From Clostridia bacterium (GTDB lineage Bacteria; Bacillota; Clostridia; Oscillospirales; SIG627), in the NCBI GenBank assembly GCA_017467865.1, contig JAFUKG010000032.1, positions 117,681 through 181,680 on the forward strand: a DNA stretch of 64,000 bases. The letters run 5' to 3'. This document shows, piece after piece, positions 2,095 to 30,749 of this stretch (the stretch's first letter is position 1; each line of letters starts with the position of its first letter). A program made the position numbers and the translations under genes. The notes below the pieces were generated by a model. It saw only the letters and a program-made list of their open reading frames with translations. It was not told the DNA's origin and did not search any database.

Positions 2095-2114
2095 GAAGAG
2101 GAGGAGAATAGATA

Positions 2115-5754: not shown

Positions 5755-5783
5755 TTGACATTGAAAACTTGATAATGTAAAAT
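5755..5783 (+). promoter_or_regulatory. Sigma-70/SigA-type promoter of the rpsL-rpsG-fusA-tuf (str) operon; arm-A copy
   Basis: TTGACA (5755..5760), 17-nt spacer, TAAAAT (5778..5783). A leader of about 110 nt follows, with a 9-bp stem-loop near 5833..5855. Confidence 0.5.
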
Positions 5784-5898
5784 ATATTAGTAATTCTGCG
5801 CAATTATGTTTACAAGTTAGATTTTGCCGAAGCTCGCAGGGAGAACCCCTGCGGGTATCGGTGTGTCTATAAAAAATTAAAGAGAAGGAGGAAAAATA

Positions 5899-6321: not shown

Positions 6322-6476
6322 GCTTTTGCAGATACTTGACACAGACAAAAAACAGCTTGTGCTTGAAATATAACAGCATACTTTTATATATAGATTATGA
6401 GGTTTCTTCAAGCACTTACGGGGCAGAAAACTGTTCCGAGTACCGCTGATATCATTTTATGAAGGAGGGAAGTTCA

Positions 6477-6947: not shown

Positions 6948-7018
6948 TTTCCGTTTTACCATTTTTAATATTTGTGAAAAAATCGGAAATTATTTAATAA
7001 AACTGAAAGGAGAAAATT

Positions 7019-9142
7019 ATGCCAAGAGATTGTTCACTTGAAAAAACAAGAAATATCGGTATTATGGCTCACATCGACGCCGGAAAGACTACCACAACAG
7101 AGCGTATTCTTTTCTATACCGGTAAAACTCATAAAATCGGTGAAACTCACGAAGGTTCTGCAACAATGGACTGGATGGAGCAGGAGCAGGAGCGTGGTAT
7201 CACTATCACATCTGCTGCAACCACATGTTACTGGGCACATTCAGATTTCCACACAGACCAAAAGAGCGTTGAGGCTAACAAGCACCGTATAAACATTATT
7301 GATACCCCCGGCCACGTTGACTTCACGGTTGAGGTTGAGCGTTCACTCAGAGTACTTGACGGCTCCGTTACAGTATTCTGTGCTAAGGGCGGTGTTGAAC
7401 CTCAGTCTGAAACCGTTTGGCGTCAGGCTGACAAATATCATGTTCCCCGTATGGCTTATGTAAATAAGATGGATATTATGGGTGCTAACTTCTACAGAGT
7501 TGTAGGAATGATGCATGACCGTCTTAAAGCTAATGCCGTTCCGATTCAGCTTCCTATCGGTGCTGAAGCAGAGTTCAAGGGTATTATCGACCTTTTCGGC
7601 ATGAAGGCTTATATTTACACTAACGACCTTGGAACAGATATCCTCGAGGAAGAAATTCCCGCAGATATGAAGGATAAGGCAGAAGAGTATCACGCAGACC
7701 TCATCGAGAAGATCGCTGAGACCGACGATGAACTCATGATGAAATATCTTGAAGGCGAAGAGCTTACTATTCCCGAGCTCAAGAAGGCACTCAGAAAGGC
7801 TACTATCGACAATAAGATAGTTCCCGTTTGCTGCGGTACCTCTTATAAGAACAAGGGTGTTCAGAAGCTTCTCGACGCAGTTATTGACTTTATGCCTTCT
7901 CCTCTTGATATCGAAAATATCAAGGGTGTTGACCAGATTACAGGTGAGGAGAGCGAGCGTCCTACCGATGACAATGCGCCTTTTGCAGCTCTTGCATTCA
8001 AGATTGCAACAGACCCCTTCGTTGGTAAGCTTTGCTTCATCCGTGTATATTCCGGTAAGATGACTGCAGGTCAGACTGTTTACAACGCTACCAAGCAGTC
8101 CAGAGAGCGTCTTGGACGTATCGTTCAGATGCACTCCAACAACAGAATCGATATTGATGAGCTTTACGCAGGTGACATTGCCGCAGTTGTTGGTGTAAAG
8201 AACACTACAACAGGTGATACACTTTGTGACGAAGACCATCCTATCATTCTCGAATCTATGGAGTTCCCTGAACCCGTTATTCGAGTTGCTATCGAGCCTA
8301 AGACTAAGGCAGGTCAGGAAAAGATGGGTATCGCTCTTCAGAAGCTTGCTGAAGAAGACCCCACATTCCGTTGCTATACAGATGAAGAAACAGGTCAGAC
8401 AATTATCGCCGGAATGGGCGAGTTGCACCTTGAAATCATCGTAGACAGACTTCTTCGTGAGTTCCACGTTGAAGCTGACGTTGGTAAGCCTCAGGTTGCA
8501 TACAAGGAAACTATCCGCAAGTCTGCGGACGTTGACCACAAGTATGCACGTCAGTCCGGTGGTAAGGGTCAGTACGGTCACGTTAAGATGATCATTGAGC
8601 CTAACGAATCGGGCAAGGGTTACGAATTCATCAACAAAGTTGTTGGCGGTAACATTCCTAAGGAATATATCCCCGCAGTAGACGCAGGTGTACAGGGTGC
8701 TATGACATCCGGTGTCATCGCAGGCTACAACGTTGTTGACGTTAAGGTAACACTTTATGACGGTTCTTATCACGAAGTTGACTCTTCTGAAATGGCGTTC
8801 AAGATTGCCGCTTCAATGGCATTCAAGGAAGGTATGAGAAAGGCTGACCCCGTTCTCACCGAGCCTATCATGAAGGTTGTCGTAGTAGTACCCGACGATT
8901 ACATGGGAGACGTTATCGGTGATATCAACTCCCGCCGTGGTCAGATTCAGGGTATGGAGCAGGTAGGACAGGGCGTTCAGGAAATCAACGCATTTGTTCC
9001 CCTTGCATCAATGTTCGGTTATGCCACAGACCTTCGTTCTAAGACACAGGGTCGTGGACAGTATACAATGGAACCCAGCCACTACACCGAAGTTCCTAAG
9101 AGCATTCAGGAAGAAATCGTTGCAGGCAAGGCTAAGGCATAA
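7019..9142 (+). CDS. fusA: Elongation factor G; arm-A copy
   Basis: 707-aa ORF with GTPase motifs [17 protein letters not shown] and NKMD. SD is aaaggag. Confidence 0.97.
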
Positions 9143-9196
9143 CAAAAAATTAAATTTAAAAAACAAAAAAACACATAAAACAGGAGGAAATTTACA

Positions 9197-10402
9197 ATGG
9201 CAAAGGCAAAATTCGAAAGAACAAAACCCCATGTTAACATTGGTACAATCGGTCACGTTGACCATGGTAAGACAACTCTTACCGCAGCAATTACAAAATA
9301 TCTTTCTCTCGGTAACGACAAGAACGAGGCTATGGCTTACGACCAGATCGACAACGCTCCCGAAGAAAGAGCACGTGGTATCACGATCAACACAAGACAC
9401 GTTGAGTACGAAACAGCTAACAGACACTATGCACACGTTGACTGTCCCGGCCACGCTGACTACGTTAAGAACATGATCACAGGTGCTGCTCAGATGGACG
9501 GCGGTATCCTTGTTGTTGCTGGTACTGACGGTCCCATGCAGCAGACTCGTGAGCACATCCTTCTTGCTCGTCAGGTTGGTGTTCCTGCTCTTGTTGTATT
9601 CATCAACAAGTGCGACATGGTTGACGACGAGGAACTTCTTGAGCTCGTTGAAATGGAAATCAGAGGACTCCTTGATGAGTACGATTTCCCCGGAGACGAT
9701 ATCCCGATTGTAAGAGGTTCTGCAAGAGAAGCTCTTATCTCTGAGTCTACAAGCGCTGATGATGCAGTTTATGCTCCTATCAAGGAACTCATGGACGCAG
9801 TTGACAGCTATATTCCTACTCCCGACAGAAAGGCTGATATGCCCTTCCTTATGCCTGTCGAGGACGTATTCTCTATCTCCGGACGTGGTACAGTTGCTAC
9901 AGGTAGAGTAGAGCGTGGTACAATCCACATGAACGAAGAAGTTGAACTCGTAGGTCTTGCTGATGAGAGCAGAAAGACTGTTGTTACAGGTATCGAAATG
10001 TTCCACAAGCTCATGGACGATGCTGAAGCAGGTGACAACGTTGGTCTTCTTCTCCGTGGTATCCAGAAGAACGAGATTGAAAGAGGACAAGTTCTTGCTA
10101 AGCCCGGCTCTATCAATCCTCACACCAAGTTCGTTGGTCAGGTTTACGTTCTTACTGAAAAGGAAGGCGGACGTCATAAGCCCTTCTTCACAAACTACAG
10201 ACCTCAGTTCTACTTCAGAACTACCGACGTTACAGGTGTTATCACTCTTCCCGAAGGCGTTGAAATGTGCAACCCCGGCGATAACGTAGATATGAACGTT
10301 GAGCTCATCACTCCTATCGCTATTGAAAAGGGTCTTCGTTTCGCTATCCGTGAGGGTGGTAGAACAGTTGGTTCCGGTGTCGTTTCCGAAATCAAGGAAT
10401 AA
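9197..10402 (+). CDS. tuf: Elongation factor Tu; arm-A copy
   Basis: 401-aa ORF beginning [28 protein letters not shown], with DCPGHADY and NKCD motifs. SD is aggagg. Confidence 0.98.
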
Positions 10403-10464
10403 TTTATAAGCGATAATAAAAAGGTTTACGCTATAGCGTAAACCTTTTTATTATCGCTTATAAA
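10403..10464. terminator. Bidirectional rho-independent terminator hairpin after tuf; also the exact centre of the 20.9-kb palindrome
   Basis: The 62-nt spacer is perfectly self-complementary. Its core is aaaaaggtttacgc ta|ta gcgtaaaccttttt (10418..10449), and the symmetry axis lies between 10433 and 10434. Confidence 0.75.
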
Positions 10465-11670
10465 TTATTCCTTGATTTCGGAAACGACACCGGAACCAAC
10501 TGTTCTACCACCCTCACGGATAGCGAAACGAAGACCCTTTTCAATAGCGATAGGAGTGATGAGCTCAACGTTCATATCTACGTTATCGCCGGGGTTGCAC
10601 ATTTCAACGCCTTCGGGAAGAGTGATAACACCTGTAACGTCGGTAGTTCTGAAGTAGAACTGAGGTCTGTAGTTTGTGAAGAAGGGCTTATGACGTCCGC
10701 CTTCCTTTTCAGTAAGAACGTAAACCTGACCAACGAACTTGGTGTGAGGATTGATAGAGCCGGGCTTAGCAAGAACTTGTCCTCTTTCAATCTCGTTCTT
10801 CTGGATACCACGGAGAAGAAGACCAACGTTGTCACCTGCTTCAGCATCGTCCATGAGCTTGTGGAACATTTCGATACCTGTAACAACAGTCTTTCTGCTC
10901 TCATCAGCAAGACCTACGAGTTCAACTTCTTCGTTCATGTGGATTGTACCACGCTCTACTCTACCTGTAGCAACTGTACCACGTCCGGAGATAGAGAATA
11001 CGTCCTCGACAGGCATAAGGAAGGGCATATCAGCCTTTCTGTCGGGAGTAGGAATATAGCTGTCAACTGCGTCCATGAGTTCCTTGATAGGAGCATAAAC
11101 TGCATCATCAGCGCTTGTAGACTCAGAGATAAGAGCTTCTCTTGCAGAACCTCTTACAATCGGGATATCGTCTCCGGGGAAATCGTACTCATCAAGGAGT
11201 CCTCTGATTTCCATTTCAACGAGCTCAAGAAGTTCCTCGTCGTCAACCATGTCGCACTTGTTGATGAATACAACAAGAGCAGGAACACCAACCTGACGAG
11301 CAAGAAGGATGTGCTCACGAGTCTGCTGCATGGGACCGTCAGTACCAGCAACAACAAGGATACCGCCGTCCATCTGAGCAGCACCTGTGATCATGTTCTT
11401 AACGTAGTCAGCGTGGCCGGGACAGTCAACGTGTGCATAGTGTCTGTTAGCTGTTTCGTACTCAACGTGTCTTGTGTTGATCGTGATACCACGTGCTCTT
11501 TCTTCGGGAGCGTTGTCGATCTGGTCGTAAGCCATAGCCTCGTTCTTGTCGTTACCGAGAGAAAGATATTTTGTAATTGCTGCGGTAAGAGTTGTCTTAC
11601 CATGGTCAACGTGACCGATTGTACCAATGTTAACATGGGGTTTTGTTCTTTCGAATTTTGCCTTTGCCAT
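10465..11670 (-). CDS. tuf: Elongation factor Tu; arm-B copy, contiguous with unique DNA and taken as native
   Basis: Exact reverse-complement copy of 9197..10402 (identical 401-aa product). Confidence 0.98.
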
Positions 11671-11724
11671 TGTAAATTTCCTCCTGTTTTATGTGTTTTT
11701 TTGTTTTTTAAATTTAATTTTTTG

Positions 11725-13848
11725 TTATGCCTTAGCCTTGCCTGCAACGATTTCTTCCTGAATGCTCTTAGGAACTTCGGTGTAGTGGCTGGGTTCCATT
11801 GTATACTGTCCACGACCCTGTGTCTTAGAACGAAGGTCTGTGGCATAACCGAACATTGATGCAAGGGGAACAAATGCGTTGATTTCCTGAACGCCCTGTC
11901 CTACCTGCTCCATACCCTGAATCTGACCACGGCGGGAGTTGATATCACCGATAACGTCTCCCATGTAATCGTCGGGTACTACTACGACAACCTTCATGAT
12001 AGGCTCGGTGAGAACGGGGTCAGCCTTTCTCATACCTTCCTTGAATGCCATTGAAGCGGCAATCTTGAACGCCATTTCAGAAGAGTCAACTTCGTGATAA
12101 GAACCGTCATAAAGTGTTACCTTAACGTCAACAACGTTGTAGCCTGCGATGACACCGGATGTCATAGCACCCTGTACACCTGCGTCTACTGCGGGGATAT
12201 ATTCCTTAGGAATGTTACCGCCAACAACTTTGTTGATGAATTCGTAACCCTTGCCCGATTCGTTAGGCTCAATGATCATCTTAACGTGACCGTACTGACC
12301 CTTACCACCGGACTGACGTGCATACTTGTGGTCAACGTCCGCAGACTTGCGGATAGTTTCCTTGTATGCAACCTGAGGCTTACCAACGTCAGCTTCAACG
12401 TGGAACTCACGAAGAAGTCTGTCTACGATGATTTCAAGGTGCAACTCGCCCATTCCGGCGATAATTGTCTGACCTGTTTCTTCATCTGTATAGCAACGGA
12501 ATGTGGGGTCTTCTTCAGCAAGCTTCTGAAGAGCGATACCCATCTTTTCCTGACCTGCCTTAGTCTTAGGCTCGATAGCAACTCGAATAACGGGTTCAGG
12601 GAACTCCATAGATTCGAGAATGATAGGATGGTCTTCGTCACAAAGTGTATCACCTGTTGTAGTGTTCTTTACACCAACAACTGCGGCAATGTCACCTGCG
12701 TAAAGCTCATCAATATCGATTCTGTTGTTGGAGTGCATCTGAACGATACGTCCAAGACGCTCTCTGGACTGCTTGGTAGCGTTGTAAACAGTCTGACCTG
12801 CAGTCATCTTACCGGAATATACACGGATGAAGCAAAGCTTACCAACGAAGGGGTCTGTTGCAATCTTGAATGCAAGAGCTGCAAAAGGCGCATTGTCATC
12901 GGTAGGACGCTCGCTCTCCTCACCTGTAATCTGGTCAACACCCTTGATATTTTCGATATCAAGAGGAGAAGGCATAAAGTCAATAACTGCGTCGAGAAGC
13001 TTCTGAACACCCTTGTTCTTATAAGAGGTACCGCAGCAAACGGGAACTATCTTATTGTCGATAGTAGCCTTTCTGAGTGCCTTCTTGAGCTCGGGAATAG
13101 TAAGCTCTTCGCCTTCAAGATATTTCATCATGAGTTCATCGTCGGTCTCAGCGATCTTCTCGATGAGGTCTGCGTGATACTCTTCTGCCTTATCCTTCAT
13201 ATCTGCGGGAATTTCTTCCTCGAGGATATCTGTTCCAAGGTCGTTAGTGTAAATATAAGCCTTCATGCCGAAAAGGTCGATAATACCCTTGAACTCTGCT
13301 TCAGCACCGATAGGAAGCTGAATCGGAACGGCATTAGCTTTAAGACGGTCATGCATCATTCCTACAACTCTGTAGAAGTTAGCACCCATAATATCCATCT
13401 TATTTACATAAGCCATACGGGGAACATGATATTTGTCAGCCTGACGCCAAACGGTTTCAGACTGAGGTTCAACACCGCCCTTAGCACAGAATACTGTAAC
13501 GGAGCCGTCAAGTACTCTGAGTGAACGCTCAACCTCAACCGTGAAGTCAACGTGGCCGGGGGTATCAATAATGTTTATACGGTGCTTGTTAGCCTCAACG
13601 CTCTTTTGGTCTGTGTGGAAATCTGAATGTGCCCAGTAACATGTGGTTGCAGCAGATGTGATAGTGATACCACGCTCCTGCTCCTGCTCCATCCAGTCCA
13701 TTGTTGCAGAACCTTCGTGAGTTTCACCGATTTTATGAGTTTTACCGGTATAGAAAAGAATACGCTCTGTTGTGGTAGTCTTTCCGGCGTCGATGTGAGC
13801 CATAATACCGATATTTCTTGTTTTTTCAAGTGAACAATCTCTTGGCAT
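11725..13848 (-). CDS. fusA: Elongation factor G; arm-B copy
   Basis: Exact reverse-complement copy of 7019..9142 (identical 707-aa product). Confidence 0.97.
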
Positions 13849-13919
13849 AATTTTCTCCTTTCAGTTTTATTAAATAATTTCCGATTTTTTCACAAATATT
13901 AAAAATGGTAAAACGGAAA

Positions 13920-14390
13920 TTACCACTTGAAATGAGAGAAAGCCTTGTTGGCTTCTGCCATCTTGTGTGTGTCTTCTTTCTTCTTTACAGCGCGACCCGT
14001 GTTGTTGATAGCGTCCATAATTTCACCTGCAAGTCTTTCAGCCATAGTTCTCTCGCCTCTTGCTCTCGCATAAGTGATGAGCCATCTGAGACCGAGTGTC
14101 TGCTTTCTTTCAGGTCTTACTTCCATGGGCACCTGATAGGTAGAACCACCTACTCTGCGAGCCTTAACCTCGAGAGTGGGCATAATGTTCTCAAGAGCCT
14201 TTTGGAATGATTCGAGAGGATTCTCTCCGAGCTTTTCTTCAACGATAGCAAAAGCATCGTATACGATACCCTGTGCTATACCCTTCTTGCCGTCCAGCAT
14301 AATATTGTTAACAAGCTTTGTTACAAGCTTGGAACCGTATATAGGATCCGGCAGAACGTCTCTTTTTGAAATTTGACCTCTTCTTGGCAC
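13920..14390 (-). CDS. rpsG: 30S ribosomal protein S7; arm-B copy
   Basis: Mirror of 6477..6947, with the same GTG start and SD reasoning. Confidence 0.92.
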
Positions 14391-14545
14391 TGAACTTCCC
14401 TCCTTCATAAAATGATATCAGCGGTACTCGGAACAGTTTTCTGCCCCGTAAGTGCTTGAAGAAACCTCATAATCTATATATAAAAGTATGCTGTTATATT
14501 TCAAGCACAAGCTGTTTTTTGTCTGTGTCAAGTATCTGCAAAAGC

Positions 14546-14968
14546 TTACTTCTTAGCCGCCTTTGCCTTCTTTGCTCCATACTTAGAGCGAGACTGATTT
14601 CTGTTTGCAACGCCCTGTGTATCAAGTGTACCACGGATAATATGGTAACGTACACCGGGAAGGTCCTTTACTCTTCCGCCTCTGATCATAACAACAGAGT
14701 GTTCCTGAATGTTATGTCCAATGCCGGGAATGTAAGCAGTAACTTCCTGACCGTTGGTAAGTCTTACTCTGGCAATCTTACGAAGAGCTGAGTTAGGCTT
14801 CTTAGGGGTCTTGGTTGTAACCTTTGTGCAAACACCACGCTTCTGGGGAGACGGAACGTTTGTTGTCTGCTTCTTGAGGGTGTTAACACCTACCTGAAGT
14901 GCGGGAGACTTTGATTTGTAAGCTACCTGCTCACGTCCGTGTCTAACCAGCTGGTTAAATGTTGGCAT
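14546..14968 (-). CDS. rpsL: 30S ribosomal protein S12; arm-B copy
   Basis: Mirror of 5899..6321 (identical 140-aa product). Confidence 0.97.
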
Positions 14969-15083
14969 TATTTTTCCTCCTTCTCTTTAATTTTTTATAG
15001 ACACACCGATACCCGCAGGGGTTCTCCCTGCGAGCTTCGGCAAAATCTAACTTGTAAACATAATTGCGCAGAATTACTAATAT

Positions 15084-15112
15084 ATTTTACATTATCAAGT
15101 TTTCAATGTCAA
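15084..15112 (-). promoter_or_regulatory. str-operon promoter; arm-B copy
   Basis: Mirror of 5755..5783. On the + strand tgtcaa is at 15107..15112 and atttta at 15084..15089. Confidence 0.5.
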
Positions 15113-15188
15113 TCAAAATGCAAAATAATTTTAAATTTCAGCAATTTGCACAATTACTTTTGTTAAAACTGACGGTTGATTGTCAATC

Positions 15189-18100
15189 TTAATCTGCTGT
15201 TGTGATAGCAGGAATTGTGTCATTGGGAGCAACCTCGATATCACGGTAGATATTAAGACCCGTACCTGCGGGGATAAGCTTACCGATGATAACGTTCTCC
15301 TTAAGACCGAGAAGGGGATCAACCTTACCCTTGATAGCAGCCTCGGTAAGAACCTTTGTAGTTTCCTGGAAGGAAGCTGCGGAAAGGAAGGAGTCGGTAG
15401 AGAGTGAAGCCTTTGTGATACCCTGAAGAACGGGAGTATAGGTTGCCTCTCTAAGGGTCGTTTCGCCCTCCTTAACTCTCTTCTCTATGATTTCGTTTTC
15501 GGTGATGATTTCGGAAACGTCAACAAGCGAGCCTGCAAGAAGGTTTGTATCTCCTGCGTCCTCTACTCTTGCCTTTCTTGTCATCTGACGGGCAATGACC
15601 TCGATGTGTTTATCGCTGATATCAACGCTCTGCAGACAGTAAACCTTCTGAACTTCGCGGATAATATAGCTGTAAACCTCGTCCATACCCTGAATTCTTG
15701 CTACGTCTGTGGGGAAGAGTGTTCCCTCTGTAAGCTTCTGACCGTGAACAACGTAGTCGCCGTCCTCGGCAAGAATTCTTGCACTCATAGCTACGGGGTA
15801 GCTTCTTTCTTCACCCGACAGCTCGTTCTTTATGATAAGTCTGTTCTTCTTGGTGTTGTCGATAATTACCTTACCGTCGATTTCCGCAATGATTGCAGTC
15901 TTCTTGGGACGGCGTGCTTCAAAGAGCTCTTCAACTCTGGGAAGACCCTGAGTGATGTCTCCGCCGGCGATACCACCTGTGTGGAAGGTTCTCATGGTAA
16001 GCTGTGTACCGGGTTCACCGATAGACTGAGCGGCAAGGATACCGACTGCTTCACCGATGTTAACTTCCTTGCCCGATGCCATATCGGCACCGTAGCAGTG
16101 TGCGCATATACCATGCTTTGAACGGCAGTTGAGAATAGAACGGATATGAATACCCTTGAATTCCTTTTTCTCTTCTTCGCTCATAGCGTTTACTGCATTT
16201 TCAATTGCGATAGACTGTTCTTCGCTGATAAGGTCTCCGTCGCGGGCAATAACGTTTCCGTCCTTATCGGTAAAGTCACCTATAATATATCTGCCCACTA
16301 TTCTTACCTTCAAAGGCTCGATAAGCTCGTTGCCCTCTCTGATTTCGGTAATCCAAGCACCTCTTGTATCTCCGCAGTCAACCTGACGGATAATTACCTG
16401 CTGTGCAACGTCAACAAGACGTCTTGTCAGATAACCTGAGTCAGCAGTACGAAGAGCGGTGTCGGCAAGACCCTTACGGGCGCCTCTTGCCGCGGTGAAA
16501 TATTCAAGTATGGTAAGACCTTCACGGAAGTTCGCCTTGATGGGAATTTCCAAAGTTCTACCTGAGGCGGTAGCCATAAGACCACGCATACCTGCAAGCT
16601 GTCTTATCTGCTTGATTGAACCTCTCGCACCTGAGTCAGCCATCATGAATATGGGGTTGAAGTTATCAAGGTTATCCTGAAGAGCCTTGGCAACGTCGTT
16701 TGTTGCCACTTCCCAAGTCTTGATAACGGCACTTCTTCTTTCCTCGTCGGTTGCAAGACCCTTGCGGTAGAGCTGAGTGATATAATCAACCTTAGCGTCA
16801 GCCTTTTCAAGGATGTCCTTCTTCTTGGGAGGAACTGTCATATCGGACACGGAAATGGTGATAGCGCCTTTTGTGGAATACTTGAAGCCCATAGCCTTGA
16901 TATCGTCAAGCAGCTTTGAGGTTCTTGCAATTCCGCAATACTTGATGGACGCATCAATAATATTACCAAGGTCGTCCTTTTTAACCACGTGGTTAACTTC
17001 AAGAACGAAGGCGTCCTCAAGAGTATTTCTTTCAACAAAGTGTAAGTTCTGAGGAATTACGCTGTTGAAGATAAATCTACCGAGTGTACAAGATACAAGT
17101 CCTGTAACCTTCTGTCCCTTGAACTCACGCTCTGCTCTTATCTTGATGGGAGCATGAAGTCCGAGGTATCCGTTTTCATAAGCCATATTAGCTTCATTGA
17201 AGTCACGGTATACGTTGCCCTCTCCCTTTTCGCCTGCCTTCACATAGGTGAGATAGTAGGAACCGAGTACCATATCCTGTGTGGGAACGGCAACGGCACG
17301 TCCGTTAGCGGGCTTAAGAAGGTTGTTAGCGGAGAGCATAAGAAATCTCGCTTCCGCCTGCGCTTCGCTTGAAAGGGGTACGTGAACAGGCATCTGGTCC
17401 CCGTCGAAGTCGGCGTTGAACGCTGAACATACAAGGGGGTGAAGCTTGATAGCACGTCCCTCTACGAGAACGGGCTCGAATGCCTGAATAGAAAGTCTGT
17501 GAAGAGTGGGAGCTCGGTTAAGGAGTACGGGGTGCTCACGGATAACCACTTCAAGAGCATCCCACACCTCTGTCATCTGATGCTCTACCTTCTTCTTAGC
17601 ATCCTTAATATTGGAGGACTTGCCTGTTTCAACAAGTCTCTTCATTACGAATGGCTTGAAGAGCTCAAGTGCCATTTCCTTGGGAAGTCCGCACTGATAA
17701 ATCTTAAGCTCGGGTCCTACGACGATAACTGAACGTCCTGAATAGTCAACACGCTTACCGAGAAGGTTCTGACGGAAGCGTCCCTGCTTACCTCTGAGCA
17801 TTTCGGACAGAGATTTGAGAGCACGGTTGTTGGGACCCGTAACGGGTCTTCCTCTTCTTCCGTTGTCAATAAGGGCGTCTACTGCTTCCTGAAGCATACG
17901 CTTTTCATTCTTGATAATGATTTCGGGCGCCTTCATTTCAAGAAGCTTTTTAAGACGGTTGTTACGGTTTATAACTCTTCTGTAAAGATCGTTTAAGTCT
18001 GAAGTTGCAAATCTTCCGCCGTCAAGCTGAACCATAGGTCTGATTTCGGGAGGAATTACGGGAAGTACGCTGAGTATCATCCACTCAGGGCGGTTGCCCG

Positions 18101-18752
18101 AAAGTCTGAATGCTTCTACAACCTCAAGTCTCTTTACTATTCTTGCCTTCTTCTGACCTGACGCTGTAAGAAGCTCGTTCTTAAGCTCCTCAGAGGTCTT
18201 ATCAAGGTCAATCTTTTCAAGGAGTGTACGGATAGCCTCGGCTCCCATACCTGCCTCAAATTTACCCTCGAACTTTTCCATAGCCTCGCGGTATTCCTGT
18301 TCGGAAAGAACCTGCTGCTTTGCGAGAGTTGTGGTCATGGGGTCAGTAACTATATACTGAGCAAAGTAGAGTACCTTTTCAAGCTGCTTGGGAGAGATGT
18401 CGAGAAGAAGTCCCATTCTTGAAGGAATGGCTCTGAAGTACCAGATGTGGGAAACGGGAGCGGCAAGCTCGATGTGTCCCATTCTTTCTCTTCTTACCTT
18501 CTTGGTAGTAATCTCAACTCCGCACTTTTCACAGACCTTACCGAGATATCTTACCTTCTTGTATTTACCGCAGTAGCACTCCCAGTCCTTTGTGGGACCG
18601 AATATCTTTTCGCAGAAAAGACCGTCGCGCTCGGGCTTGAGAGTTCTGTAATTGATTGTTTCCGGCTTTGTGACTTCGCCGTGTGACCACGAACGAATCA
18701 TTTCAGGAGAAGCAAGACCAATTTTAATTTTGGCGAATTCTTTATTATCCAT
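15189..18752 (-). CDS. rpoC: DNA-directed RNA polymerase subunit beta prime; arm-B copy
   Basis: Mirror of 2115..5678 (identical 1187-aa product). Confidence 0.95.
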
Positions 18753-18772
18753 TATCTATTCTCCTCCTCTTC

Positions 18773-21700
18773 TTATATTTCGTCATCCGAATAATCGTCT
18801 GACTCTTCACTTGTTTCGTAGGTGTCCTGATACTCGTCGTCATAGAGCGGGTCATCCATATCATTGATTTCCTCGCCTATCATATCAGGGTCGATGTTAT
18901 CCTCTGCCGCACGAATCTTTGCAGTTTCCTCCTCGGAGTTTTCGTGAAGCTCTATCTCGTTTCCGTCAGCATCAAGTGCCTGAAGATTAAGACCAAGGCT
19001 CTGAAGCTCCTTAACAAGCACCTTGAAGGATTCGGGAACACCGGGAGTAGGAATGTTCTGTCCCTTGACAATAGATTCAAAGGCATTTACACGTCCTACG
19101 ATATCGTCGGACTTAACTGTGAGTATTTCCTGAAGTGTATAAGCTGCGCCATACGCCTCAAGAGCCCATACTTCCATTTCACCGAAACGCTGTCCGCCGA
19201 ACTGAGCCTTACCGCCCAAAGGCTGCTGAGTAACCAGCGAGTAAGGACCTGTTGAACGGGCGTGAATCTTATCGTCAACAAGATGGTGAAGCTTTAAGAA
19301 GTACATAATACCAACGGTTACAGGATTATCGAAGGGCATACCTGTACGTCCGTCGTAAAGAACAGTCTTACCGTCGATAACCTTAAATCTGCCCTCGGAC
19401 ATAAGAGCTTCAATATAATCCTTATCCGCTCTTTCTTCGGCTGTGAGACGGCGGAGTATCTTATTGCCGTTTTCTTCTATTGCCTCGTATACGTTCTTAC
19501 CGTCTACGTTTTCACCGGGAACAACGTCACGGTCAAGACCTGCAAGTCTCTGGAGCTCTGCAATATTTTCTTCCTTTGCTCCGTCGAATACGGGGGTCAT
19601 TATCTTGAAGCCGAGCTTCTTTGCGGCAATGCCAAGGTGTACCTCGAGCACCTGACCGATGTTCATTCGGGAAGGAACGCCCAGAGGGTTAAGAACGATG
19701 TCAAGAGGAGTACCGTCGGGAAGGAAGGGCATATCCTCGGAGGGAAGTATTCTTGATACGACACCCTTATTACCGTGACGGCCCGCCATTTTGTCGCCGA
19801 CAGAAATCTTTCTCTTCTGTGCAACGTAAACCTTAACTACCTTATTTACACCGGGTGCAAGCTCATCCTGATTTGCACGGGTGAATACCTTAACGTCGAT
19901 TATTATACCGCTTTCTCCGTGAGGAAGCTTGAGAGATGTGTCTCTTACTTCTCTTGCCTTTTCACCGAAGATTGCTCTGAGAAGTCTCTCTTCTGCGGTA
20001 AGCTCTGTTTCACCCTTGGGGGTAACCTTACCTACAAGAATGTCGCCTGAGTGTACCTCGGCACCGATGCGGACGATACCGTCAGCGTCAAGGTCCTTGA
20101 GAGCCTCGGGACCCACAGAGGGAATTTCACGGGTAATCTCTTCGGGACCGAGCTTGGTATCTCTTGCCTCGTGAGAATACTCTTCTATATGGATTGAAGT
20201 GTAAATATCGTCTCTTACAAGGCGCTCGTTGATAAGTACGGCGTCCTCGTAGTTATAGCCTTCCCAGGTAACAAAGCCGATAAGAGCATTCTTACCGAGA
20301 GCAACCTCGCCGTTCTTGGTTGCAAGACCGTCGGCAATAACGTCGCCCTCTTCTACTCTTTCGCCCTTTGATACAACGGGACGCTGGTTGTTACAGGTAC
20401 CCTGGTTGGTACGCTTGAACTTAATAAGCTTATAGGTATCCTTGATACCGTCGTCGTTCTTTATTATGATTTCGTCTGCTGTTACTCTGTCAACAATACC
20501 TGCACGCTTTGCAAGAACTGTTACACCTGAGTCAACTGCAGCCTTATATTCCATACCTGTACCTACGATGGGAGAGTCGTTTATCATAAGGGGAACAGCC
20601 TGCTTCTGCATGTTGGAACCCATGAGCGCTCTGGAGTTGTCATCGTTTTCAAGGAAAGGAATAAATGCTGTGGCAACTGAAACCACCATTTTGGGAGAAA
20701 CGTCCATGTAATCTATGTCTTCTGCATCAACAACGACGATTTCTTCTCTCTGACGGGCAGTTACCTTCTTGTTTATAAATCTTCCGTCAGCGTCAAGAGG
20801 CTCGTTAGCCTGAGCTACGATATATTCGTCCTCTTCGTCGGCAGTAAGGTATCTTACTTCCTTAGTTACAATACCCGTTTCCTTGTCTACACGGCGGTAG
20901 GGTGCCTCGATAAATCCGAAGGGGCTTATGCGGGCAAAGGTTGACAGGTAAGAGATAAGACCGATGTTGGGACCTTCGGGGGTCTCGATAGGACACATTC
21001 TTCCGTACTGAGTATAGTGTACGTCTCGAACGTCGAAGGATGCTCTGTCTCTCGACAAACCGCCGGGACCGAGAGCTGAAAGCCTTCTCTTGTGAGTAAG
21101 CTCGCCAAGGGGGTTACCCTGATCCATAAACTGAGAAAGAGGAGATGAACCGAAGAAGTCCTTGATAGCAGACATAATGGGACGGATGTTAATGAGAGCC
21201 TGAGGAGTTACGGAGTCAATATCCTGAATTGTCATTCTCTCCTTAACAATCTTATCCATTCTGAGGAAGCCTATTCTCATCTGGTTCTGAAGAAGCTCAC
21301 CGACAGAACGAAGTCTTCTGTTACCAAGATGGTCTATATCATCCTTGGTGCCTATTTCGTGGTAAAGGCATACAAGATAGTTGATGGAAGAAAGAATATC
21401 CGCTCTTGTAATGCTCTTGGGAATAAGCTCGTCGCGACGGCGAAGCATTGCTTCCTTAATAGCCTCTTCACCCTCGCACTCGTCAAGAATTTCAAGGAGT
21501 GTTGCACGGTCAACCATCTCGGTGATACCGATGGATGCAACCTCAAAGGGAAGTACCTTGTCGGGGTGTACCATTCCGTTGGAGAATATCTTAATCTCTC
21601 CGTCTGTACCCTCAACGTATACCTCTGTAATACCCGCGTATTCCATAGCTTCACCCTTTGCACGGTCAAGCCTTTCACCCTTTTCAAAGATTATCTCTCC

Positions 21701-24686: not shown

Positions 24687-24898
24687 AATATTCCCTCCTT
24701 TTTTCTGCATTATAGCACAAAGGCAAAAAGCCTTCAATAGTCATTTTTAACAAAAACAGAGAGCTTGTTTTTACGTTAAAAAACTGCAAAAATTCAAAGG
24801 TATATCTTAGTTAAATAAAGTATTATATTTTATAATTGTTTACTTTGAGGTCACATTCTCATGATATGATACAAAAGAATTCAGAAAGGAGTATGAAA

Positions 24899-25573
24899 AT
24901 GAGATTGCTATATGCAGAAGATGAACCCGCCCTTTCCGAAGCGGTGGTTGACTATCTTACTTACCACAAATATATCGTAGACCCTGTTTACAACGGTTCC
25001 GATGCCTACGATTATGCCAGCGTTAACAAATATGACGGAATTATTCTTGATATAATGATGCCGGGACTTGACGGCATAGAGGTTTTGTCCCACTTGCGCA
25101 AAAGCGGTTGTACAACTCCCGTGTTATTACTGACGGCAAAAGCTCAAGTAGAGGACCGCATCAAGGGATTGGACTGCGGTGCCGACGATTATCTTTCAAA
25201 GCCGTTTGATATGGGGGAGCTAATCGCCAGAATACGCGCTATGCTCAGACGCAGAGAGGAATACCATTCTGATTTGATTATCTTTGAAGACCTCAATTTA
25301 AATATGCAAACGGGGGAAATCAAGGTAAACGGCGCATCTTTCCAATTGCCAAAGCAAGAGTACCGTCTTTTGGAGCAGCTTATGCTCAATCAATCAATAT
25401 ATATGTCTACCGAAGAACTTTTGATGAGAGCTTGGGGCTACAACGCCGAAACCGACCTGAACAGTGTATGGCTATACGTTTCTTATCTGCGCAAGAGGCT
25501 TTCTGCGATGGGTTCTAAGGCGGATATTGTGTCAAAGCGCAATATCGGATATAAATTGGAGCTTAAGCCATGA
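24899..25573 (+). CDS. OmpR/PhoB-family response regulator
   Basis: Receiver domain (MRLLYAEDEP.., ILDIMMPGLDG, LLLTAK) plus a winged-helix C-terminus (..VWLYVSYLRKRL..GYKL). ATG 24899 sits 7 nt after aaaggag; 24893 is an alternative start. Confidence 0.85.
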   Translation: MRLLYAEDEPALSEAVVDYLTYHKYIVDPVYNGSDAYDYASVNKYDGIILDIMMPGLDGIEVLSHLRKSGCTTPVLLLTAKAQVEDRIKGLDCGADDYLSKPFDMGELIARIRAMLRRREEYHSDLIIFEDLNLNMQTGEIKVNGASFQLPKQEYRLLEQLMLNQSIYMSTEELLMRAWGYNAETDLNSVWLYVSYLRKRLSAMGSKADIVSKRNIGYKLELKP

Positions 25574-26790: not shown

Positions 26791-26810
26791 TATTTCAATA
26801 AATATTCACA

Positions 26811-26848
26811 AACCTTCCCCTGTTCGTTCACACAAGGGAAGGTTTTTC
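26811..26848 (+). terminator. Terminator after the two-component operon
   Basis: Stem aaccttccc/gggaaggtt with a loop of about 16 nt, followed by ttttt. Confidence 0.5.
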
Positions 26849-26907
26849 TAATGTAATTCATAGGTAAGGAAAGTATAATAACTTCCATAGAAAGGAGGAA
26901 TACTGTT

Positions 26908-27579
26908 TTGCAATTCAGACATGAAGTAAAGCATGAAATAAATGAAGCGGATATGCTTATTCTGCGTCAAAGGCTGAAGGCGGTAATGAGCTCTGACCCC
27001 CATGCTGTAAACGGGAAATATGAAATACGAAGCTTGTATTTTGACACCCTTGACGACAAGGCGCTGAGGGAAAAGCTCGACGGCGTAAATATACGTGAAA
27101 AATACCGCATCCGACTGTATAACAACGACCCCTCGGTAATTCATTTGGAGCGAAAATTCAAGCATGGCGGTCTTGGATATAAAAGCTCTGTCTCCCTGTC
27201 CCCGAAAGAGGCGCAGGCTATTGCCGACGGAGACGTAGAATGGATGGCTCGCAGTAACAACGAAGCGCTTCTCGGCTTTTACCTTCACCTTCGTAACGAA
27301 GGGCTTAAAGCTAAGGTCATTGTGGACTATACCCGCGAGCCCTTTATATTCGCACCGGGAAACGTCCGTATAACACTGGATTACGGTATTCGTACAAGTA
27401 TGAGCTGCACGGATTTTCTCAATCCCAATTGTGTCACCGTTCCCATAAAGGAGTCCCCTTGCATCCTTGAAGTAAAGTGGGATAGCTTTCTGCCCGACGT
27501 CATTCGGGATGCAGTGCAGCTTGAGGGCAGACACAGCGCGGCTTTTTCCAAATATGCCGCCTGCCGTATGTATGACTAA
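26908..27579 (+). CDS. VTC-domain protein (polyphosphate-polymerase-like domain, triphosphate tunnel metalloenzyme fold)
   Basis: 223-aa ORF with a TTG start 9 nt after aggagg. The N-terminus FRHEVKHEI.. and RSLYFDT...EKYRIRLY match my recollection of bacterial VTC-domain proteins. Confidence 0.65.
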   Translation: MQFRHEVKHEINEADMLILRQRLKAVMSSDPHAVNGKYEIRSLYFDTLDDKALREKLDGVNIREKYRIRLYNNDPSVIHLERKFKHGGLGYKSSVSLSPKEAQAIADGDVEWMARSNNEALLGFYLHLRNEGLKAKVIVDYTREPFIFAPGNVRITLDYGIRTSMSCTDFLNPNCVTVPIKESPCILEVKWDSFLPDVIRDAVQLEGRHSAAFSKYAACRMYD

Positions 27580-27614
27580 GTAACAACAAATAAAACAAAG
27601 GAGTAAATCCAACT

Positions 27615-28286
27615 ATGAATTTTAACGATATTTTTAAATCAAGCTTTCTCGAAAACGTATCCTCCGTCAATCTACTTGATATGCTGCTGACCGTTGTGCT
27701 ATCCTTCGGCATCGGTCTTTTCATCTTCCTCGTTTATAAGAAAACCTACCGCGGTGTGATGTATTCCGCAGGCTTCGGAACTACGCTCATCGCTCTTACT
27801 ATGATTACGTCTATCGTCATTCTCGCCGTAACCTCCAACGTGGTTCTCTCGTTGGGTATGGTGGGTGCACTCTCTATCGTTCGTTTCCGTACTGCCATTA
27901 AGGAGCCCCTTGATATTGCATTTTTATTTTGGTCTATCGGTGTAGGTATTATCCTGGCAGCAGGTATGATTCCTCTTGCTATAATCGGAAGCGTATCAAT
28001 CGGTATAATCCTTCTTATTTTTGTAAATAAGAAATCCCATACCCGACCTTACATGATAGTGCTGAGCTGTGAAAATCACGATGCGGAAGTCAAGGCAAGA
28101 GACTTTATAGAAAAAAATACAGCCCGCACAACACTCAAGAGCAAATCTGCCGTCAAGGGCGCTATTGAAATAAATATCGAAGTCCGCCTGAAGAAAGACG
28201 ACACAGATTTCATCAACGTTCTTTCCGAAATGACGGGAGTAAACAGTGCAGTAATCGTCTCCTATAACGGCGATTATATGGGGTAA
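27615..28286 (+). CDS. DUF4956-family polytopic membrane protein
   Basis: 223 aa, with four to five hydrophobic segments and the motif LSLGMVGALSIVRFRTAIKEP that I associate with DUF4956. SD is aaaggag. Confidence 0.65.
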   Translation: MNFNDIFKSSFLENVSSVNLLDMLLTVVLSFGIGLFIFLVYKKTYRGVMYSAGFGTTLIALTMITSIVILAVTSNVVLSLGMVGALSIVRFRTAIKEPLDIAFLFWSIGVGIILAAGMIPLAIIGSVSIGIILLIFVNKKSHTRPYMIVLSCENHDAEVKARDFIEKNTARTTLKSKSAVKGAIEINIEVRLKKDDTDFINVLSEMTGVNSAVIVSYNGDYMG

Positions 28287-28292
28287 AAGCAT

Positions 28293-30233
28293 ATGTCAGA
28301 AAGTAAGTATTTTGACAAGATAGCGTGGTCTGTCACAGCCATAATACTAATCATCACCATTTTGTTTATGAACGGTCCGGCTCTTGGCATTGAGGTTATG
28401 GCAAGTACTATGGGATACGAAAACCGTCTGTTTGACAATACAAGGGTGCACACCATTGATATTGTAATGAACAATTGGGAAGAGTTTATTGATAACGCGT
28501 CAAGCGAGGAATACTACACCGCCACCGTAGTGATAGACGGTGAGGCATATAAAAACGTCGCCATACGCGGTAAAGGCAACACTTCTCTTTCCAACGTCGC
28601 CTCTATGAACAGTGACCGATACAGCTTCAAGGTGGAATTCGACCACTATGACAGCTCTATCACCTATCACGGACTTGACAAGCTGGCTCTCAATAATTTG
28701 ATACAAGACGCCACCATGATGAAGGACTATCTGACCTACACCATGATGAACGAGTTTGATGCCGCATCTCCCCTTTGCAGTTTTGCGTACATCACCGTCA
28801 ACGGTGAGGATTGGGGACTGTATCTTGCAGTGGAAGGTGTTGAGGACAGCTTTCTTGAACGTAATTATGGAACAAGCTACGGAGAACTGTATAAGCCCGA
28901 CAGCACAGGGTTTGGCGGTGGACGGGGCAACGGCAAGGACTTTAACATAGAAGATTTTGTAAATAACGAAAAGCCAGCCATCGACTCCGAGCAAGGTATG
29001 CCTATGCCGGACAGAGAAAGCTTTGACCCTTCCTCAACGTTCAGCGCAAACGTGCCTGCTATGAGTAGCTTCGATCCCTCTCAGATGCAGGGCAATGCAC
29101 CGCAGATACCCGATATGACACAAGGAGAGTCCAATTCTGAAAACGGCGATAGATTTTCCTTCGGAGGAAAAGGCGGATTTGGAGGGATGGGCTCTTCAGA
29201 CGTAAAACTTCAATACGTAGACGATAATATCTCCAGCTACTCAAACATTTGGAACAACGCCAAAACCGACGTTACAGAAGCCGACCAAATAAGGCTCATT
29301 GAGTCCCTGAAAAAGCTATCTGAGGGCGATCAGATAGAATCTGTTGTAGACGTCGAAAAGGTCATGCGCTATTTCGTTGTTCACAACTACGTTTGCAACG
29401 GTGATAGCTACACAGGCTCAATGATTCATAACTACTATCTGTATGAGGAAGACGGAAAAATGGCCATGATTCCTTGGGATTACAATCTTGCATATGGCAC
29501 CTTCCAAGGCGGTAACGGTCAAAGCACAGTCAATACTCCCATAGATTCTCCCGTTTCCAACGCAAACGGCGAGGATCGCCCCATGTGGAACTGGATAGTA
29601 CAAAACGAAGAATATACCCAGCAATATCATAGGTATTTTACTGAATTTCTGAACACAGTTGACGTTCAGGGCATAATCAACGATGCGTATAACCTTATCA
29701 AATCATACGTAGAAAGGGATCCCACAGCATTCTACACCTACGAAGAATTTGAAAACGGTGTAGAGGCTCTGCGTCAATTCTGCTCTCTTCGTTCCAACAG
29801 CATCGCCTTACAGCTTGAAAACGGTGAAACTACAAACAACACCAACTACTCGGACGCTTCTTCGTTAAATATTTCAAACATGGGCTCTATGGGTATGGGT
29901 CTTAACGATAGAAATAAGAATACCGAGAGCACAGAAAACAATTTTGATAAAAGTAAAGATTTCACCTCACCGCAAAACGCCAACGTCTCACAAGATATGG
30001 AAAATATCGGGGTGGAACCCAGCTTTGAAAAAAACTCCGACACCGAAGATCCTGAGCAAAGCACAAAACAACCCTTCACAGATAGAGAACAGACACAAAA
30101 GCGCAGTTTTAATAGCTTTAACGTGAATGCTGATGAAATGAATAATTCCCAAAGCGGTGAAGGGCTATGGCTTATAGTATCTTTTTCAGTTCTCATAATA
30201 GGTTTAATCATAGCAAAAGTATATAAACATTAA
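28293..30233 (+). CDS. CotH-family atypical protein kinase, membrane-anchored at both ends
   Basis: 646 aa. CotH-like core (..VAIRGKGNTSL..YSFKVEFDHYD..LNNLIQDATMMKDYL..GELYKPD..). N-terminal signal anchor and C-terminal TM segment (GLWLIVSFSVLIIGLIIAKVY). Confidence 0.75.
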   Translation: MSESKYFDKIAWSVTAIILIITILFMNGPALGIEVMASTMGYENRLFDNTRVHTIDIVMNNWEEFIDNASSEEYYTATVVIDGEAYKNVAIRGKGNTSLSNVASMNSDRYSFKVEFDHYDSSITYHGLDKLALNNLIQDATMMKDYLTYTMMNEFDAASPLCSFAYITVNGEDWGLYLAVEGVEDSFLERNYGTSYGELYKPDSTGFGGGRGNGKDFNIEDFVNNEKPAIDSEQGMPMPDRESFDPSSTFSANVPAMSSFDPSQMQGNAPQIPDMTQGESNSENGDRFSFGGKGGFGGMGSSDVKLQYVDDNISSYSNIWNNAKTDVTEADQIRLIESLKKLSEGDQIESVVDVEKVMRYFVVHNYVCNGDSYTGSMIHNYYLYEEDGKMAMIPWDYNLAYGTFQGGNGQSTVNTPIDSPVSNANGEDRPMWNWIVQNEEYTQQYHRYFTEFLNTVDVQGIINDAYNLIKSYVERDPTAFYTYEEFENGVEALRQFCSLRSNSIALQLENGETTNNTNYSDASSLNISNMGSMGMGLNDRNKNTESTENNFDKSKDFTSPQNANVSQDMENIGVEPSFEKNSDTEDPEQSTKQPFTDREQTQKRSFNSFNVNADEMNNSQSGEGLWLIVSFSVLIIGLIIAKVYKH

Positions 30234-30261
30234 AAAACGGCGGATTTCTCCGCCGTTTTTT
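30232..30261. terminator. Bidirectional terminator between cotH-like gene and lipoprotein gene
   Basis: Stem-loop cggcgga-tttc-tccgccg flanked by A6 and T6 runs. Confidence 0.75.
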
Positions 30262-30749
30262 CAGATATCAAATTCTGCATAAAGTATTTTTTCTTCTATG
30301 AAGTGTTCTATTCTCTTAATACCTTGATATTCATTAAGGCGAGTACCTTCTATTCTTACATCCTTAACTATGCGGTAATGACCTGAGAGAAGAGTTCCAT
30401 ATAGCCACTCCCAATTCACATCAAACTCATAGCTGTCGTTGTTGGGAATAGGATATGCAAGTAAATACCACGCCGGCTCACAAAGAGCATCCGCTTCTGT
30501 CCATTCACCGTCAACAAGCTTTTCCAAAACAAATCTTGAACCGGTTATTGCATTCACGTTGTCTCCCGAATGGGTGATTTTCCCCTTCAGCCCCGTGGGG
30601 GTAACGTCGCTGACGGTCATTTCAATCGTCCACTCATTTGAATACTTTTCTTCAAGAGGTATCTTTGGATCTTCCGCTGCAATTTCTTCCTTTTCACAGC
30701 CCGTAAAAGTAAGGATAAGGGCGACGAGTACCAAAATTAATTTTTTCAT
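30261..30749 (-). CDS. Small lipoprotein of unknown function
   Basis: 162 aa. Signal peptide with lipobox LTFTGC. SD is aaaggag. Confidence 0.6.
   Translation of the reverse strand: MKKLILVLVALILTFTGCEKEEIAAEDPKIPLEEKYSNEWTIEMTVSDVTPTGLKGKITHSGDNVNAITGSRFVLEKLVDGEWTEADALCEPAWYLLAYPIPNNDSYEFDVNWEWLYGTLLSGHYRIVKDVRIEGTRLNEYQGIKRIEHFIEEKILYAEFDI

Follow-up and report, generated by a model that had tools for sequence, protein, structure and literature searches.

A VTC-DUF4956 gene pair with a swappable third gene and an adjoining two-component system in a Clostridia genome

Genes for a VTC-domain protein, a DUF4956 membrane protein and a CotH-family kinase have been described together as accessory genes of Gram-positive pel operons. 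Published pel loci of streptococci, clostridia and bifidobacteria contain cotH, a gene with a polyphosphate (polyP) polymerase domain, and DUF4956 (bioRxiv 10.1101/768473 = PMC7112168), and the locus NELoc-2 of Clostridium perfringens combines the same genes with a glycosyltransferase and a deacetylase. Streptococcus intermedius mutants lacking each of the three genes (SIR_1592-1594) in turn still produced Pel and aggregated, loss of the DUF4956 gene having only a small effect; the same preprint did not find the trio outside pel operons (bioRxiv 10.1101/2024.04.20.589940). Here we analyze an operon of these families in a stretch of 64,000 nucleotides (hereafter the window) from a Clostridia bacterium (assembly GCA_017467865.1, contig JAFUKG010000032.1, positions 117,681 to 181,680 of the forward strand). 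The operon consists of three co-directional open reading frames (ORFs) on the + strand with intergenic gaps of 35 and 6 nt; an earlier note, made from the letters of the window, had given the position, shared direction and spacing of the genes exactly. Contrary to that note, which took the trio to have no annotation beyond domain names, it is in print as a pel accessory gene set. We describe the locus as a five-gene envelope cassette under two-component control, made up of a response regulator, a sensor kinase, the VTC protein, the DUF4956 protein and a surface-anchored ectodomain protein.

The likeness to the pel accessory set is close: the same three families stand in one operon, and the published predictions are of a cytoplasmic Vtc4-like enzyme, an MgtC-like protein with four to five transmembrane (TM) helices and an ACT domain, and a CotH that is secreted and keeps its catalytic residues. 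Unlike that set, the genome studied here has no pel genes at the locus or elsewhere and has a dedicated two-component system instead; its CotH protein is doubly membrane-anchored and lacks the FN3 domain; and, whereas the trio was reported only in pel operons, we find the VTC-DUF4956 pair in 139 of 300 Clostridia genomes.

The enzyme of the cassette has a well-studied relative in the yeast VTC complex (Vtc4/Vtc3/Vtc1; PDB 3G3Q, 7YTJ, 8I6V). Cryo-EM of that complex showed that K200, R264, R266, K281, R361, K458, S457 and Y359 bind triphosphate and are required for polyP synthesis, that E426 coordinates Mn2+, and that K458 is the single residue distinguishing active Vtc4 from the inactive Vtc2 and Vtc3. 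The bacterial cassette shares with it a homologous tunnel domain in which the triphosphate- and Mn-binding residues are all conserved, and an enzyme permanently tied to a membrane protein. Its architecture parallels that of the eukaryotic complex, although the membrane partner, an MgtC-like DUF4956 protein, is not homologous to the three-helix Vtc1-type subunit. Other differences are that the bacterial enzyme has neither an SPX domain nor a TM domain of its own, that an extracytoplasmic third protein is added, that a two-component system takes the place of inositol pyrophosphates in its control, and that coupled translocation, demonstrated in yeast, would be a guess here.

The remaining relatives concern single components. 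Proteins of the MgtC/SapB family (Salmonella MgtC; the C-terminal domain of Mycobacterium tuberculosis MgtC, 2LQJ) resemble DUF4956 in having a polytopic N-terminal membrane domain followed by a C-terminal ACT-like domain, with a weak but consistent sequence similarity over G-rich helices. However, the Pfam MgtC model fails on DUF4956, which has its own signature SLGMVGALSIVRFRTAIK, and DUF4956 has an obligate VTC partner where MgtC proteins have none. Expression of MgtC is under PhoPQ, an OmpR-family two-component system, just as the DUF4956 cassette has an OmpR-type pair. Bacillus CotH (PDB 5JD9/5JDA) belongs to the same Pfam family as the CotH protein of the window, and both of its required aspartates, D228 and D251, shown to be essential in B. 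subtilis, are conserved. In contrast to it, the window protein does not belong to the spore coat, has no coat genes in its vicinity, is predicted to be membrane-anchored at both ends with the domain placed outside, where ATP is scarce, and carries a low-complexity insert of ~100 aa. Finally, the Cthe_2159 proteins of C. thermocellum (PDB 4PEU/4PHB) are reported to bind cellulose and the polyanion polygalacturonate and to resemble PL9 pectate lyases. As shown below, genes for this family of extracellular polymer binders can take the third place of the cassette in relatives; the family is not present in the cassette of the window and is not a kinase.

Our survey of 300 genomes drawn evenly from class Clostridia found VTC and DUF4956 together in 139 (46%), VTC only in 6, DUF4956 only in 0 and neither in 155 (Fisher 3e-79). 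CotH was present in 101 of the 145 VTC-positive genomes vs 12 of the 155 VTC-negative ones (Fisher 1e-30). We also collected the 80 genome loci whose DUF4956 is nearest to that of the window (65-85% identity; hereafter close loci). In 78 of these the gene directly upstream of DUF4956 is VTC, and in 55 of the 69 that have enough sequence the gene directly downstream is CotH, which is missing in the other 14. From both sets of counts, VTC-DUF4956 is an obligate pair and the core of the cassette, and CotH is a frequent but not an obligate partner. The co-occurrence of the trio, which the earlier note advised checking, is borne out as linkage far beyond chance, and as an obligate relationship for VTC and DUF4956, but not for CotH.

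The same block of regulator (224 aa), kinase (406 aa), VTC, DUF4956 and CotH was found in three unrelated contexts: the window, Agathobaculum desmolans and a third gut lineage. The genes form one conserved unit, whose genomic surroundings change. The A. desmolans cassette adjoins TnpV and DUF6809 genes. DUF4956 proteins 84-85% identical to that of the window occur in metagenome-assembled genomes labelled Lachnospiraceae, Chloroflexota and Saccharofermentanales; either the cassette is horizontally mobile or some of these genomes are mis-binned. These distributions bear on the idea that the genes are accessory to Pel or another exopolysaccharide, and modify or regulate that polymer, as could be supposed from the presence of the three families in published pel loci and in NELoc-2. 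A search for PelG gave no match anywhere in the genome, which is 82% complete, the flanks of the cassette here are unrelated to pel, and relatives differ in their flanks. With the pair present in close to half of the sampled Clostridia, we consider such an accessory role highly improbable.

The third position of the cassette turned out to be filled in another way where CotH is missing. We examined the gene directly 3' of DUF4956 in 20 cassettes that have no CotH there, 10 from CotH-less genomes and 10 from close relatives, and in every one it encodes a beta-helix protein of the Cthe_2159 family (Pfam PF14262). Among the 139 pair-bearing genomes, 45 have CotH only, 34 have Cthe_2159 only and 55 have both, so that 134 (96%) have at least one; Cthe_2159 was found in 89 of these 139 genomes vs 16 of the 161 without the pair (p 1e-23). 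A tree built from concatenated VTC and DUF4956 sequences of 75 cassettes requires 9 changes of ectodomain type on the best topology, at least 4 of them forced by well-supported branches, and includes one sister pair, with 96% support, that has one ectodomain of each type. Our literature search found no paper linking Cthe_2159 to VTC-DUF4956, and the swappable third gene appears to be a new observation. A weaker Cthe_2159-like ORF (E 1e-25) is also encoded in this genome, on contig C9:102135-102866, not adjoining the cassette.

In close relatives, both types of third protein open with the same anchor, MS-x-x-K-x-(I/F)-D-(K/R)-I-C...[TM]...LFMNG-x-x-LG-(I/V), found across 77 related cassettes, and finish in a TM helix followed by a basic tail. 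Within this genome the N-terminal motif was found in the CotH protein only. A comparison of the 42-aa N-terminal anchor with a set of 5.8 billion proteins returned only 6 near-identical CotH proteins and was uninformative on other ectodomains. In distant cassettes, the beta-helix third proteins are either lipoproteins or proteins with wall-binding SLH or Cu_amine_oxidN1 domains. The bulk of the third protein is predicted to lie outside the cell, and its N-terminal anchor appears, from the sequences, to be specific to the cassette; the architecture in three compartments (cytoplasm, membrane and outside) is obligate. Since this anchor is conserved across swapped ectodomains, it points to a shared membrane complex rather than to mere co-regulation.

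A constant anchor carrying exchangeable ectodomains is also what modular receptors look like, and Cthe_2159 proteins do bind cellulose and polygalacturonate. The anchored ectodomain might therefore be a receptor for an external polymer, controlling the cytoplasmic VTC enzyme via DUF4956. However, the cassette already has a dedicated sensor kinase, the invariant catalytic residues of CotH (see below) point to an enzyme and not to a passive receptor, and the distant third proteins that are lipoproteins have no TM helix through which a signal could be transmitted. Signalling from outside to inside is, in our view, very unlikely.

The VTC protein matches the Pfam VTC family over residues 3-219 of 223 with 128.9 bits (cut-off 23; E 2.9e-37). 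A single-sequence search of PDB with this protein gave no match; a profile built from 26 bacterial VTC proteins, forming two clades only 20-27% identical, retrieved from PDB only Vtc4, Vtc2 and Vtc3 (best 3g3q, E 3e-15). The AlphaFold2 model (pLDDT 85.9, pTM 0.84) has Vtc4, Vtc3 or Vtc2 structures as all of its top 13 PDB matches (TM-score 0.65-0.77, E 1e-13 to 1e-10), followed by other triphosphate tunnel metalloenzymes. Counting positions along the profile alignment, we mapped the following residues to yeast Vtc4 (in brackets): K8 (K200), R67 and R69 (R264 and R266), K83 (K281), K92 (K294), Y141 and R143 (Y359 and R361), R154 (R373), E188 (E426), and S214 and K215 (S457 and K458). The residues matching those for polyP synthesis, together with E426, are identical here and either invariant or at least 90% conserved across both bacterial clades. 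The protein is the tunnel domain alone, with no SPX domain and no membrane segment within its 223 aa. Its Vtc4 fold with the full Vtc4 catalytic set shows it to be catalytically competent at the level of residues.

The tunnel could nevertheless host another reaction. The superfamily of triphosphate tunnel metalloenzymes includes triphosphatases, thiamine triphosphatase and adenylate cyclases, which are the next-best structural matches, and the bacterial proteins retain the classical R-x-E-x-K first strand, the Glu of which is replaced by threonine in Vtc4. Hydrolysis of triphosphate, polyP or nucleoside triphosphates (NTPs), or nucleotide cyclisation, might then yield a product or energy that acts on, or by way of, DUF4956 and its ligand-binding, ACT-like domain. 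Against this speak the conservation of all Vtc4 residues for polyP synthesis, including K458, which distinguishes the active Vtc4, and the fact that sequence and fold both match Vtc proteins before all other members of the superfamily. We regard a reaction other than polymerisation as unlikely.

The DUF4956 protein matches its Pfam family with E 8.2e-11. Our search of a library of representatives at 50% identity recovered 5469 DUF4956 representatives at E <= 0.001, of which 64 diverse, full-length sequences were aligned. Conservation in this alignment peaks at the motif LSLGMVGALSIVRFRTAIKEP (residues 78-98), a helix of small residues followed by a basic loop, R90-F-R92-T-x-x-K96; G81 and R90 are invariant, and conservation reaches 90% or more at S79-F91, R92, K96 and D100. 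Three long representatives (P0256, P0339 and P0317) were considered as natural fusions and were not used, since they look like frameshifted or chimeric calls joining adjacent genes. The AlphaFold2 model (pLDDT 89) has a short N-terminal amphipathic helix, TM helices at residues 20-44, 52-74, 76-92, 98-115 and 119-138, and a beta-alpha-beta-beta-alpha-beta (ACT-like) domain at residues 145-216. According to the positive-inside rule, the N-terminus is predicted outside, and the basic loop and the ACT-like domain in the cytosol; this loop is where the cytoplasmic VTC tunnel could dock.

Several comparisons relate DUF4956 to MgtC. Among PDB structures, the model is best matched by 2LQJ, the M. tuberculosis MgtC C-terminal domain (TM-score 0.66 on target). 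The NCBIfam MgtC/SapB model matches DUF4956 with E 7.8e-7 but with 28.9 bits, far under its cut-off of 214, and hhalign aligned the DUF4956 family profile to the MgtC protein of a relative over 126 columns covering the membrane helices (E 1.2e-4, probability 56%). Neither a single-sequence PDB search nor the Pfam MgtC model gave a match to DUF4956. In the light of these sequence and model comparisons, DUF4956 would seem to form a remote branch of the MgtC superfamily. Some 1.5 kb downstream of the A. desmolans cassette are two MgtC-family genes in tandem (12470-13896 of its stretch); this may be a coincidence or a hint that DUF4956 and MgtC act in related processes. Three published transcriptome studies that mention DUF4956 have it among differentially expressed genes, with no consistent signal.

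The resemblance to MgtC, in sequence and in the fold of the C-terminal domain, also lends weight to a purely cytoplasmic role, in which VTC and DUF4956 would make or regulate membrane-proximal polyP for phosphate, ATP or Mg2+ balance, and the third protein would be an independent surface enzyme or adhesin, merely co-expressed under the common envelope-stress two-component system. MgtC has been reported to act on ATP synthase and PhoR, and a statement quoted in one preprint does not count it as a transporter but describes it as regulating the metabolism of ATP and phosphate (bioRxiv 10.1101/2024.04.20.589940). Cytoplasmic polyP is normal in bacteria, and the authors of the S. intermedius study took polyP as staying intracellular. 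Such a role is harder to reconcile with a third gene whose product is nearly always extracytoplasmic, with the occurrence of CotH or Cthe_2159 in 96% of pair-bearing genomes, and with an anchor that is conserved while the ectodomain is swapped, which co-regulation alone hardly explains. We consider it doubtful, though it deserves to be kept in mind.

The CotH protein of the window matches its Pfam family with 206 bits (E 9.8e-61) in two stretches split by the insert, and PDB 5jd9 with E 3.4e-9. Hydropathy places its anchors at residues 6-37 and 621-646, the second being preceded by a stalk rich in N, S, D and E (residues ~515-620). As basic residues flank the first anchor on its N-terminal side and the second on its C-terminal side, the CotH domain is predicted to be outside. 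D371 and D396 align to D228 and D251 of B. subtilis and are invariant in 52 of 52 orthologues, as are H379, N380 and N398, so that the ectodomain kinase is, judging by these residues, apparently active. Orthologues range from 531 to 814 aa; the differences in length are located in the insert and the stalk as far as inspected, which suggests that these are fast-evolving, surface-exposed linkers. Some strains have broken copies: the CotH gene of GCA_046973465.1 falls into three separate ORFs, and two metagenome contigs encode a DUF4956 protein truncated to 150 aa. Copies of this kind could be due to gene decay, on/off variation or sequencing error.

The earlier note had proposed much of this description of the three proteins. 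Its assignment of the VTC protein to the Vtc4 tunnel fold agrees with Pfam, with the PDB profile search and with the AlphaFold2 model alike, and the tunnel and kinase residues that it advised checking are there: the complete Vtc4 set, with K215 as the equivalent of K458, and both CotH aspartates. Pfam likewise confirms the DUF4956 protein, and the motif that the note had described lies at residues 78-98. It had also predicted two membrane anchors in CotH, which we recover, and an insert rich in G, S, P and M; G, S, P, D and F abound in the insert (residues 200-300), whereas M is less frequent.

Upstream of the operon lies a regulator-kinase pair. Of 62 close loci, 34 have such a pair next to the cassette, in the same direction in 19 and divergent in 15, and it stands beside the VTC-DUF4956 genes, or within ~3 kb or less, in 13 of 20 distant CotH-less cassettes. 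The regulators and kinases of the distant cassettes score 136-208 and 82-209 bits, respectively, against the proteins of the window, whereas the three other OmpR-type pairs of the same genome reach at most 129 bits for the regulator and at most 58 for the kinase. This pattern of scores indicates co-inheritance and not chance adjacency; the two-component system is part of the cassette. No informative conserved feature was found in the sensor loop of the kinase. The kinase start overlaps the stop codon of the regulator by 4 nt. The regulator ORF opens at TTG 24836, and a form of 224 aa begins at ATG 24899; the latter is the likely true start, giving the length of the orthologues.

We compared the spacer of 117 nt between the kinase and VTC genes with aligned orthologous intergenic regions (Table 1). 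In these, the direct repeat CTAATGT-N4-CATAGGT and its fixed distance of 8-9 nt to the -10 hexamer are conserved, and the remaining spacer has diverged. A repeat over a weak -35 is the arrangement expected of an OmpR/PhoB-type activator site, and we propose it as a candidate regulator box. Upstream, the hairpin that follows the kinase gene has a 10-bp stem, maintained through compensatory changes in orthologous loci, and a loop of 15 nt, because of whose length the automated terminator scan passed over it. At the position of the first direct repeat, relatives have TTCAAT-N5-TTCAAT or TTCAGC-N5-TTCAGC, and some of them have too little space for a separate promoter 3' of the hairpin. Because of this shortage of space, together with the repeats upstream, the hairpin may be a regulated leader instead of a plain terminator. 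A search of the spacers against Rfam returned no known riboswitch or leader. The description of this region in the earlier note holds throughout: an OmpR/HisKA pair upstream behind a terminator is confirmed by Pfam and by the hairpin, the tataat -10 with a poor -35 is found as TATAAT and ATGTAA, and the suggested dependence on an activator gains support from the conserved repeat in an 11-bp register over the weak -35.

Table 1. Features of the cassette and its surroundings, in window coordinates.
Feature	Position	Strand	Basis or remark
OmpR/PhoB-type response regulator	24836..25573	+	Pfam Response_reg 1.1e-28, Trans_reg_C 5.1e-16
Sensor histidine kinase, HisKA + HATPase_c, two TM helices, ~120-aa outer loop	25570..26790	+	Pfam; 406-aa orthologue
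Direct repeat TTCAAT-N5-TTCAC, 11-bp register	26794..26809	+	Alignment of orthologous spacers; between kinase stop and hairpin
Intrinsic terminator-like hairpin + T run, stem AAACCTTCCC / GGGAAGGTTT	26810..26849	+	Sequence; 3' of kinase gene
Direct repeat CTAATGT-N4-CATAGGT, 11-bp register	26848..26865	+	Over -35 region; candidate regulator site
-10 hexamer TATAAT	26874..26879	+	Conserved; -35 position reads ATGTAA, poor match
Ribosome-binding site AAAGGAGG	26891..26898	+	9 nt 5' of TTG; conserved in orthologous spacers
VTC-domain protein, 223 aa, TTG start	26908..27579	+	Pfam E 2.9e-37
DUF4956 membrane protein, 223 aa	27615..28286	+	Pfam E 8.2e-11
DUF4956 motif, residues 78-98	27846..27908	+	Most conserved stretch of the family
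CotH-family kinase, 646 aa, doubly anchored	28293..30233	+	Pfam E 9.8e-61
N-terminal signal-anchor module MSxxKxxDKI...[TM]...LFMNGxxLGI	28293..28403	+	Motif in 77 related cassettes
Low-complexity insert rich in G, S, P, D, F	28899..29192	+	Composition; splits CotH domain
C-terminal TM anchor with basic tail KVYKH	30153..30230	+	Hydropathy; 3' of N/S/D/E-rich stalk
Bidirectional intrinsic terminator, common to convergent Big_14 lipoprotein gene	30232..30261	both	3' of CotH gene

Beyond the operon, a Big_14 (bacterial Ig-like) lipoprotein gene (30261-30749, - strand) converges on it, an adjacency not kept in relatives. The flanks of the cassette contain xylose-isomerase-like TIM-barrel (AP_endonuc_2) genes, a lipoprotein and an AraC-regulated locus. 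The contig that holds the window (C29; 256,226 bases) is identical to its own reverse complement, and positions 1-10433 of the window are mirrored in 10434-20866 at 100% identity, without spacer or mismatch, almost certainly reflecting a foldback artefact of the assembly. The foldback doubles rpoB, rpoC, fusA, tuf and the rest of the arm, and inflates the genome size by 128 kb. Because the contig is a perfect palindrome, the apparent second copy of the cassette in the genome is a product of the assembly and not a duplication.

Considering these results together, our preferred reading is that the cassette is an inside-to-outside machine, in which a Vtc4-type polymerase, switched by a sensor and seated on an MgtC-like partner, makes a product that reaches an ectodomain protein on the outer face; we give it a probability of roughly one third (about 35%). 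The polyP chemistry, the translocation and the use by CotH are the parts of it that we infer. The sensor kinase would detect a cue in the envelope or outside the cell; the phosphorylated regulator would bind the direct repeat over the weak -35 and turn the operon on; the VTC enzyme would dock on the basic cytoplasmic loop of a DUF4956 oligomer and polymerise phosphate from NTP; the polyP chain would be passed to, or held at, the membrane and reach the outer face; and the anchored ectodomain protein would bind or use it, CotH here phosphorylating a surface protein or glycan. The earlier note had proposed that VTC and DUF4956 make and export polyP or a related polyanion which the exposed CotH uses or modifies. 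Its domain calls hold, and the VTC residues, the CotH aspartates and predicted outward face, the obligate VTC-DUF4956 pair and the membership of the two-component system lend it support; it is weakened by CotH not being an obligate partner.

A number of points weigh against the inside-to-outside machine. Because the non-kinase Cthe_2159 replaces CotH, the module as a whole cannot work on the principle of a polyP-fed kinase; a role of polyP as phosphoryl donor would therefore not be general, and the swap fits better a product that both ectodomains bind or process. CotH-fold kinases, moreover, are known to use ATP. The similarity between DUF4956 and MgtC is weak (56% in hhalign), MgtC proteins act as regulators, and to our knowledge no member of the MgtC superfamily conducts anything. 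The deletions of the three homologues in S. intermedius did not impair Pel production or aggregation, and our literature search found no biochemical assay of a VTC-domain protein from any bacterium. In favour of the machine, neither PPK1 nor PPK2 turned up in the genome, an absence that is not secure because the genome is only 82% complete. Across the class, PPK1 was found in 55 of 145 VTC-positive vs 34 of 155 VTC-negative genomes: the two are mildly positively associated and not complementary, and we reject the idea of VTC as a substitute for PPK1.

The most far-reaching form of the proposal is a bacterial split VTC machine, with a Vtc4-type polymerase on an oligomer of the MgtC superfamily threading polyP across the membrane during synthesis, independently of PPK1/PPK2, and with interchangeable anchored ectodomains on the outside, CotH using the polymer as phosphoryl donor where ATP is absent and Cthe_2159 binding it as a polyanion. 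We consider this specific version quite unlikely.

The possible consequences differ with the part of the proposal that is right. If VTC is a polymerase, the many gut anaerobes without PPK1 (90 of the 145 VTC-positive genomes) would gain an unrecognised route to polyP. If its product reaches the surface, this would explain how outward-facing kinases work without ATP, and would add an inorganic polyanion to the Gram-positive envelope. The split machine, if true, would mean that an inorganic polymer has an export route dedicated to it, and would give the MgtC fold a new function. The swappable ectodomain on a conserved anchor, the co-inherited two-component system and the candidate regulator box turn a vague association of genes into defined contacts and controls that can be tested.

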